From positions 1-12,048 of the IMG/VR virus record IMGVR_UViG_2534682338_000009: DNA of 12,048 nt. One strand, written 5' to 3'. The translations under genes were made by a program, and so were the position numbers. Origin of the DNA: a virus. Lineage: Duplodnaviria; Heunggongvirae; Uroviricota; Caudoviricetes. A model generated the notes under the pieces. That model was not told the origin of the DNA, did no database searches, and worked only from the letters and a program-made list of their open reading frames with translations. Below, in pieces: positions 11,410-11,569 of this stretch (within the stretch, counting starts at the first letter, position 1; each line of letters starts with the position of its first letter).

Positions 11410-11569
11410 CATCTTTCCATTAGAAAGTAGGATAATTATAATAGGTTGGAAAGATGCCATTTTGCCCCCCGTTTAAACGGTAAAATGCGGCTTACAGCGG
11501 TGTTTTTTGCCCTGTTTTCGCCCCATCTTTCCATCAACATGATTCCCACGCTAAACAGTTGGAAAGATG
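11410..11569. repeat. Four copies of an 11-bp motif (CATCTTTCCAT / TTGGAAAGATG) in alternating orientation; iteron- or operator-like array
   Basis: Copies at 11410-11420 (inverted), 11446-11456 (direct), 11524-11534 (inverted), 11559-11569 (direct). The two inverted pairs have 25- and 24-bp spacers that are unrelated to each other, so only the arms are conserved. The array ends 2 bp from the stop codon of the 158-aa gene. Confidence 0.8.

Follow-up and report, generated by a model that had tools for sequence, protein, structure and literature searches.

The replication origin of phage lambda lies inside gene O, within the transcription unit of its initiator, and comprises in order four initiator sites, an AT-rich region and a palindrome. 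The DNA is wrapped by the initiator, DnaB is recruited by O and P, and the O gene and its sites behave as a travelling specificity cassette (O/iteron types). Lambda cosB (R3-I1-R2), bound by gpNu1 and integration host factor (IHF), has inverted sites around a bend. The gal operators OE and OI, looped by GalR with HU, were taken as the basis for comparison with looping operators of the GalR or AraC type. In the origins of Staphylococcus aureus pathogenicity islands (SaPIs), iterons lie directly downstream of the rep open reading frame (ORF), with an AT-rich centre and at least two opposed iterons on each side (PMC9371898). RepA of the PLE of Vibrio cholerae (an element that resembles phage-inducible chromosomal islands), a RepA_N initiator without helicase or primase, binds non-coding iterons and needs the replisome of another element; the PLE also carries a large serine recombinase (PMC7145576). 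Here, we describe an array of four short sites located directly downstream of the gene of a 158-amino-acid (aa) protein. This ORF (11572..12048, − strand) encodes a putative site-binding protein of an orphan all-alpha family. The array was found in a stretch of 12,048 nucleotides from a virus of the Caudoviricetes (IMG/VR record IMGVR_UViG_2534682338_000009, positions 1 to 12,048), hereafter the window. The sites are most probably bound by the adjacent protein and may belong to a replication origin.

A repeat and DNA motif search found exactly four copies of the 10-mer CATCTTTCCA in the window, in alternating orientations between positions 11410 and 11569. Two are on the + strand (11410–11419 and 11524–11533) and two are reverse complements (11447–11456 and 11560–11569). 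The + copies can be lengthened to CATCTTTCCAT and the − copies to GTTGGAAAGATG (11–12 nt). The spacers inside each pair are 26–27 nt long and unrelated in sequence, copies of the same orientation are 113–114 bp apart, and a G/C tract (11464–11470) and the motif GTTTTCGCC (11515–11523) lie between the pairs. The last site stops 2 nt short of the stop codon of the 158-aa ORF. An earlier note on this DNA had reported four sites of alternating orientation directly downstream of this gene, with unrelated spacers of about 25 bp and the G/C tract and GTTTTCGCC between the pairs; the exact copies and the intervening motifs were located as it had claimed. It had also proposed a search for the 11-mer elsewhere: zero further exact copies of the core CATCTTTCCA occur in the window beyond the array. 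In 5000 shuffles of the 474-nt non-coding block that contains the sites, no 10-mer reached a multiplicity of 4, and the maximum of 3 was obtained in 2/5000. Invariant columns were then compared across five relatives whose 158-aa-family proteins are 48–97% identical to that of the window: 36/40 were invariant in the sites and 33/120 in the spacers (Fisher p = 3e-12). On this comparison, the sites are under purifying selection and the spacers are not. Sites that are kept between diverged spacers agree with the proposal of the note that these would be protein-binding sites rather than a duplication.

Positions in the block are described below in gene direction, i.e. reading the − strand of the window, and loci of relatives are designated by L numbers. 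Site 1 (CATCTTTCCAAC, 11558..11569, −) starts 3 nt past the stop codon and is at the same position in L003, L011, L013, L014, L018 and L033. Site 2, the inner left site (11524..11534, +), is inverted with respect to site 1, from which it is separated by a 23-nt gap between the extended sites, and it is kept in all clades. Site 3 (11445..11456, −) has the orientation of site 1 and directly abuts an AT-rich box (AT box); in every specificity group with identified sites, the box is adjoined by a site placed and oriented like this one. Site 4 (11410..11420, +) is inverted, lies beyond the AT box and is present in the window clade only, the one clade in which the box is flanked by oppositely oriented sites. 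Among the relatives, the left cluster comprises 2–5 sites and starts 3–8 nt past the stop codon. In L023 and L040 it consists of iteron-like direct repeats at intervals of 20 bp.

The sequence of the sites switches only when the adjacent 158-aa protein switches. Natural gene swaps reveal five or six specificities, and the site sequence does not track the small terminase (TerS), the large terminase (TerL), the HNH nuclease, the ribbon-helix-helix (RHH) protein or the integrase. In L033/L018, the 158-aa protein is ~90% identical to the window type (all identities in this comparison are relative to window-type proteins) and the sites are identical, with an HNH protein at 26%, a recombinase at 25%, an RHH protein at 48% and TerS at 84%. 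The sites are the same in L011/L012 (158-aa protein 76%, TerS 35%), and the site core is the same in L013 (64% and 36%, respectively). The element of Escherichia coli WGI31CT (L001/L020) has HNH, TerS and TerL proteins 93%, 88% and 93% identical to those of the window type, and it combines a 160-aa remote homologue with ATTAGCCC sites. This homologue gave E = 18 against the window type by BLASTP, and 98.4% with E 6e-15 by hhalign against the family profile. The WGI31CT type of protein and the same ATTAGCCC sites recur together in a Kluyvera element (L026). Other site types are GTTTTTCCAAC in L016/L019, where the protein is 51% identical, CATCTTGCGAC in L021–L025 and TTAGTAC in L035/L040. The CATCTTGCGAC type accompanies integrases of both kinds, serine in L021 and tyrosine in L022. 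When the loci (8–41 kb) were scanned with the 9-nt motifs, exact matches were restricted to the block, except for a single one in L018; for two clades, whose motifs have 7 nt, further matches were obtained outside the block, as expected.

Because the adjacent protein is the sole partner that tracks the site sequence, it very probably binds the sites, a DNA-binding role that we infer from sequence covariation. TerS, TerL, the HNH and RHH proteins and the integrases are therefore ruled out as the specificity partner. The gene and its sites form a specificity cassette that is swapped between otherwise near-identical elements. The 158-aa gene had been named as the relevant partner in the earlier note, and covariation over five or six specificity groups speaks for that choice.

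The inner sites are separated in the window by a 67-nt spacer (11457..11523) containing A/T tracts at roughly helical intervals (10–11 bp), a G run and the palindrome CCGTTTAAACGG (11469–11480). This spacer is a putative bending segment, whose intrinsic bend would come from the A/T tracts. The spacer sequence varies among clades, and its length within a clade varies by 10–12 or 22 bp, i.e. by about one or two helical turns. Distances between inner sites were 77/87/88 for loci of the window clade, against 77/78/88/89 for those of the CATCTTGCGAC clade and 76/98 for those of the ATTAGCCC clade. The spacers of L001, L026, L024 and L023 each contain a perfect IHF consensus, WATCAANNNNTTR, and that of the window contains none. 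The AT box (11421..11444, CCTATTATAATTATCCTACTTTCTAA in gene direction) is conserved in sequence across clades with differing sites (TTATATTAATATTA / TAATATAATATAA). It reads TTATATTAATATTA, or CCTATTATAATTATCC in the window, and it is always abutted by one site. An AT-rich region is found beside the sites, as in an iteron-type origin, the box abutting the right-hand site in every clade. The AT box is the proposed unwinding element; alternatively, it could be a −10 box.

The module (gene, sites and AT box) is the sole part shared by three kinds of elements: prophages, islands of ~9 kb and jumbo phages of the RaK2 type. In the phage-like prophages, it is co-directional with the late genes. One of these is the complete 32.5-kb relative in E. 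coli WGI31CT, which is inserted in yegD and has nearly all its genes in one direction; no replication gene and no cI/Cro gene could be recognised in it. In the ~9-kb islands, which lack structural genes, the module converges on a cI-like gene. There, an integrase (serine or tyrosine) is followed by the 158-aa-family gene and the block. Next come the convergent gene of a cI/S24-type repressor, a Cro-like HTH_35 gene and two conserved unknown genes, and then variable cargo (retron reverse transcriptase, DarT/DarG and others) and a small resolvase. The island loci (L021, L022, L024, L035, L040 and L014/L015) come from Edwardsiella, Yersinia, Pantoea, Citrobacter and Serratia, and their blocks of ~330 nt are highly conserved between genera. 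These islands may be a new satellite type. In Klebsiella phage RaK2, ORF075 (152 aa; with its downstream region, L043 5001–5600) matched the family profile (99.7%, E 7e-26). Right past its stop codon, GGAATTAGGGACAC occurs in forward, reverse and forward orientation, followed by CTATTATTAAATT at the position of the AT box, in a region of 155 bp between convergent genes. The triple site and AT box of RaK2 sit within an 84-bp direct repeat, and the two-gene unit is on the strand opposite to that of the surrounding baseplate genes.

The 158-aa protein matched no Pfam or PHROG family, and no helix-turn-helix (HTH) or RHH domain was detected in it. A profile search of PDB sequences with the family gave no match, and no fold match to solved structures was found. 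The AlphaFold model has seven helices (predicted local distance difference test score, pLDDT, 78.8). Compared with viral models (BFVD) by Foldseek, it matched uncharacterised phage proteins only, the best being RaK2 H6X3N2 (E 6e-7). The family is rare, with 19 clusters at 50% identity among 1.8e9 representatives. A separate search gave 53 family clusters, and those with a named source are all from Enterobacterales. None of the isolated phages has a window-type 158-aa protein, and a tblastn search of phages and plasmids found no match. A Q-type antiterminator with its qut site was considered and rejected, the Q-like fold and the promoter and terminator downstream of the gene expected of it not being found.

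Three candidate functions had been put forward in the earlier note: a replication origin, small-terminase binding sites or operators. Iterons of an origin located downstream of an initiator gene would best fit the anatomy. An iteron-type replication origin with a cis-acting origin-binding protein is our leading interpretation; it is a tentative one, to which we give slightly less than an even chance. It is favoured because the sites lie at the end of the gene, right past the stop codon, in opposite orientations around an AT-rich centre and in helical phase across the presumed bend, with a palindrome next. The short site also appears to be element-specific and multiple, with four exact copies that covary with the adjacent protein. 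The origin is further supported because all three settings need one, and because the complete 32.5-kb relative has no further gene that could be recognised as serving replication. Adjacency to its own gene is constant and the neighbours vary, two of the three settings have no gene for a block promoter to serve and one is a virulent phage. These points speak against cosB, as well as against an immunity repressor, an activator of late genes or a recombination directionality factor.

In the proposed mechanism, copies of the 158-aa protein would bind the left sites and the site beside the AT box, and would meet across the bent spacer of ~67 bp. The bend would be due to intrinsic A-tracts in the window and to IHF in some relatives. 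The outcome would be a wrapped nucleoprotein complex placed right against the conserved AT-rich box. The protein would act as a small origin-binding initiator, loading in cis while being made; the complex would destabilise the AT box, and the replisome would be provided by the host, a helper or the phage itself. Bending of the spacer, wrapping and the origin function are what we infer from this layout.

Compared with the lambda origin, the order of the sites, the wrapping in the proposed model and the cassette of gene and sites are alike. However, the lambda origin is inside the O gene and O and P recruit DnaB, whereas no P-like partner is recognisable here, and lambda O and the 158-aa protein have no sequence similarity. 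The origins of SaPIs and other phage-inducible chromosomal islands also have repeats directly past the ORF and an AT-rich centre between opposed repeats. In them, too, each protein is matched to its repeats, and both vary among related elements (PMC9371898). They likewise belong to integrative elements linked to phages. Unlike the protein described here, which has 158 aa, is all-alpha and lacks an ATPase, SaPI Reps are large self-loading winged-helix helicases with a partner primase. SaPI iterons are of 5–6 nt in 6–12 copies, whereas the sites are here of 10–12 nt in 3–6 copies, with a phased bent spacer. PLE RepA offers a precedent for an initiator relying on a foreign replisome, in an element that likewise has a large serine recombinase, but its repeat architecture is different. 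A specific DNA-binding protein with its own site array beside an AT-rich box is of a known kind; the protein family, the phased architecture and the spread over prophages, islands and a jumbo phage are new. A wider proposal is possible, if on balance doubtful: minimal origin-binding initiators (~18 kDa, all-alpha, no enzymatic domain) would form a class that had escaped recognition, and the 158-aa family would be this class. The family gene, phased sites and AT box would then form a portable, specificity-swapping replicon shared by three groups, i.e. undescribed one-directional serine-integrase temperate phages of Enterobacterales, new defence-carrying islands of ~9 kb and RaK2-type jumbo phages. 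The islands may be satellites of those temperate phages.

Further elements follow the AT-box site in the block, whose order in gene direction is left sites, spacer, AT-box site, hairpin, ~60-nt element, CAAAGT-type repeats and GC-rich segment. The hairpin is an imperfect palindrome (11312..11389) with arms of 38 nt that are 76% complementary, after which TATAAAAAAC comes in gene direction. At the same place in relatives, there is a hairpin whose sequence differs, with an A run next, and compensatory changes in the arms were judged by eye (GGGATAATAG/CTATTATCCC versus GGGGTAATAG/CTATTACCCC). The ~60-nt element (11243..11303, −; TTGCGT.TT.CTCGC...CGCAAGCG...TCGCTTTGCTC) is 96.7% identical to that of E. 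coli WGI31CT (L001 6001–6061), where the remaining block is unalignable. It is recognisable in all prophage and island specificity groups examined, is duplicated in L025 and was not seen downstream of the RaK2 gene; RNAalifold gave a weak conserved hairpin with 1 compensatory pair. Direct repeats GACTTTGGATAATT (11184..11218; AATTATCCAAAGTC in gene direction) are present as two full copies and a partial third, and include the DnaA-box-like TTATCCAAA. Relatives keep just their CAAAGT core, and DnaA boxes were dropped as a candidate since TTATCCAAA is not kept. The GC-rich segment (11120..11180), with two GGCGACTC motifs, is loosely conserved among relatives; it includes GGGCGGCGAC (11132–11141), which we take to be the first 10 nt of the lambda cohesive end. 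This match could be a coincidence, or a second or ancestral cos-like site. An Rfam scan (E<=1) of window positions 10800–12048 and of loci L026, L036 and L040 gave no match. The earlier note had seen the GC-rich motif, the direct repeats and the sites as one hub. They do belong, with the ~60-nt element, to the same conserved block, but none of these three elements covaries with the 158-aa protein as the sites do.

Several observations weigh against an origin. No initiator, winged-helix, helicase or primase domain is recognisable in the 158-aa protein, which falls in none of the recognised partner classes of iteron origins (winged-helix Rep, RepA_N, helicase-initiator and O-like). At 18 kDa, it would be unusually small as an initiator, compared with those of plasmids and phages. 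None of 72,556 plasmids has a member of the family, a mildly unexpected absence if the module is an autonomous replicon. The AT box is not just AT-rich but short and of conserved sequence, which would suit a −10 element or the site of another protein, and the DnaA-box-like repeats are not conserved beyond the window clade. In the window clade, a near-consensus promoter is bracketed by sites 3 and 4. Finally, island blocks contain hairpins with UNCG-type loops in gene direction (GGCC-UNCG-GGCC, the loop varying between TACG, TCCG and TGCG), which hints at transcription into a structured RNA. For six island blocks, RNAalifold gave a stable consensus fold (−42.9 kcal/mol) with double changes in just 5/72 pairs, and one long-range helix of this fold is a self-complementary CAGTACTG repeat. 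The island blocks may be transcribed as a structured RNA, possibly a primer or a regulator.

That promoter and the possible RNA also bear on the operator function considered in the earlier note. As a regulator, the 158-aa protein would occupy both site clusters, loop the DNA between them and so control a promoter with the AT box as its −10 element. The promoter would be antisense in the window clade, or a weak one in gene direction feeding the downstream (late) genes or a non-coding RNA. A sigma-70-like promoter (TTTCCA-17 nt-TATAAT, 11414..11442, +), with 10/12 consensus matches and antisense into the 158-aa gene, indeed overlaps sites 4 and 3, its −35 being within site 4 and its predicted start within site 3. 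In a position weight matrix scan, it was the best match in the window, L033, L011, L013 and L014, and its position is kept in these five window-clade loci; yet the other specificity groups have neither this promoter nor site 4. In nearly all clades, the AT box resembles TATAAT whichever strand is read, but no gene-direction promoter with a usable −35 was predicted, and promoter-like matches were no commoner than in shuffles. Helically phased spacing and IHF sites fit repression by looping. As at the gal operators, two site clusters are ~113–114 bp apart, spacers differ by whole helical turns and the centre promotes bending; unlike there, no conserved promoter is enclosed, and convergent regions and a virulent phage are among the places where the module is found. 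Swapping of a gene with its sites is typical of immunity regions, and the phage-type elements have no other recognisable repressor except the 50-aa RHH protein. Nevertheless, the family is not confined to temperate elements: a homologue with the same site layout is found in virulent phages of the RaK2 type, so it is not generally a lysogeny repressor. The islands already have a cI/S24 repressor and Cro-like pair, no HTH or RHH domain was detected in the protein, and in the islands and RaK2 the block lies between convergent genes and has no gene to regulate. The operator candidate of the note is weakened by this 3′–3′ convergent location and by the virulence of RaK2, and we consider it unlikely, although it is the main rival of the origin. 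In a further candidate function, recombination, a serine recombinase of the element would use each inverted pair (~47–49 bp with an AT-rich centre) as an att- or res-like substrate. Inverted arms of 10–12 bp around an AT-rich centre of ~25 bp do resemble serine-recombinase sites, a large serine recombinase is encoded 1.6 kb upstream of the 158-aa gene, and the islands also have a small resolvase. However, a recombinase of 25% identity accompanies the same sites in L033, and in L022 a site type known from a serine-integrase island goes with a tyrosine integrase. Different sites are seen beside resolvases of one family, the phage-type elements have no small resolvase and most clades have no second arm around the AT box. 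The covariation contradicts recombinase sites, and we regard them as extremely improbable.

The block could also be a cos region, its four sites being cosB-like and bound by the small terminase, as suggested in the earlier note, or by the 158-aa protein, which would set packaging specificity jointly with the neighbouring HNH nuclease. TerL belongs to the gpA type, the upstream gene encodes an HNH endonuclease and HNH genes beside cos and terminase genes are a known arrangement in HK97-type phages. GGGCGGCGAC recalls the lambda cohesive end in a GC-rich, cosN-like segment nearby, the inverted sites around a bend, with IHF consensus sites in several relatives, resemble R3-I1-R2 of lambda cosB, and the presence of the block in the islands recalls satellites, which bear cos sites of their helpers. 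Against this, the sites do not covary with TerS, TerL or HNH. Binding by the small terminase is contradicted both by the same sites being found with TerS proteins 35–36% identical (L011/L012 and L013) and by the wholly different sites of L001/L020, where TerS and TerL are 88% and 93% identical. Unlike lambda cosB, the block is ~5.2 kb away from terS, and its sites are 265–435 bp from the GC-rich motif rather than beside a cosN upstream of terS. The motif itself is poorly conserved and the GC-rich segment is absent from the RaK2-type phages, which have the module and are not known to use cos packaging. Moreover, all intact relatives have a separate conserved element ~130 bp upstream of terS, which the islands lack. 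In the window (5870–6010, −), it reads TAGGTaCTCCC, 22 nt and GAGTTTTCGCCGCGAATT, with the palindrome TTCGCnGCGAA; downstream, TATGAAATTTTTT and direct TGAATAA repeats lie beside the terS start. Across relatives, it reads TAGGTtCTCCC, 22 nt and GAGTTTTCGCCGCGAaTT, then TGAATAA repeats. We take it to resemble the right flank of lambda cosN, and this palindromic element is a better cos candidate than the block. A cos site in the block based on the lambda-like GGGCGGCGAC was downgraded in view of this element and of the poor conservation of the GC-rich motif. Overall, a packaging role of the block is very unlikely, and the iteron-type origin is retained as the preferred reading.

The motif GTTTTCGCC of the spacer between the pairs (11515–11523, +) recurs at 5990–5998, inside the conserved element upstream of terS. 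With respect to the genes, this second copy is oriented oppositely. It may be due to chance, the expected number of such 9-mer coincidences in 12 kb being ~0.1. Beyond the right end of the window, a hairpin with 22-nt arms lies between the HNH gene and the 158-aa gene (L003 9919–9971). Its sequence changes between relatives with the pairing kept (compensatory changes), and it is followed by a T run in L023 and L025, which makes it terminator-like. A motif ATACGCCAT, common to the block and the hairpin upstream of the 158-aa gene, was rejected, being found in L003-type loci only. The 158-aa gene seemingly has no room for a promoter of its own and may rely on read-through.

In gene direction, the window contains the 158-aa gene, the 474-nt non-coding block, a 55-aa ORF, lipoprotein and membrane genes and terS, followed by late genes for a gpA-type TerL, a head-tail protein, a portal and a protease/capsid fusion. 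An OLD-family nuclease gene (AAA_15 and OLD-like TOPRIM; 6315–8135, +) lies between the block and terS. The region around it is variable between otherwise identical prophages (L007 versus L003) and looks like a hotspot for defence cargo. Contigs with an identical 158-aa protein have, in order, host mdoGH-yceK-msyB, the large serine recombinase, the 50-aa RHH protein, a 201-aa protein identified as an HNH endonuclease (PHROG 959, E 1e-8), the 158-aa gene, the block and the late genes. The protease/capsid fusion of the window is truncated: it aligns to a 618-aa homologue up to residue 455 and ends at window position 190. The adjoining ~100 bp (92–190) are 99–100% identical to a Stx-phage sequence annotated as ‘putative passively mobilized insertion similar to IS285’. 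Next to them, on the − strand, is what we take to be the start of an IS256-family transposase gene (N-terminus MDEKQLQALANELAKNLKT). The window prophage is probably defective, with an insertion sequence (IS) in its capsid gene. The closest TerL in an isolated phage is 38.7% identical (phage DCP80). The record of this phage is seemingly chimeric, with a T4-like Tevenvirinae label and a gpA-type terminase, and was set aside as uninformative. A search for DNA similarity among isolated phages matched a single unrelated IS end of ~100 bp. Scans of genome contigs and viral contigs with the HNH protein gave no match, and no description specific to this type of prophage or island was found in the literature.

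The covariation gives an orphan family its first directly testable function, sequence-specific DNA binding, with a target predicted for each of five or six clades. The natural specificity swaps constitute a ready set for learning how a new all-alpha fold would read DNA. As an origin, if it is one, the module would make an unusually small replicon and would explain how prophages of ~32 kb without recognisable replication genes are copied. By tying these prophages to the ~9-kb islands that carry retron, DarTG and similar cargo, the module provides a lead to a possible new pairing of phage and satellite in the Enterobacterales.

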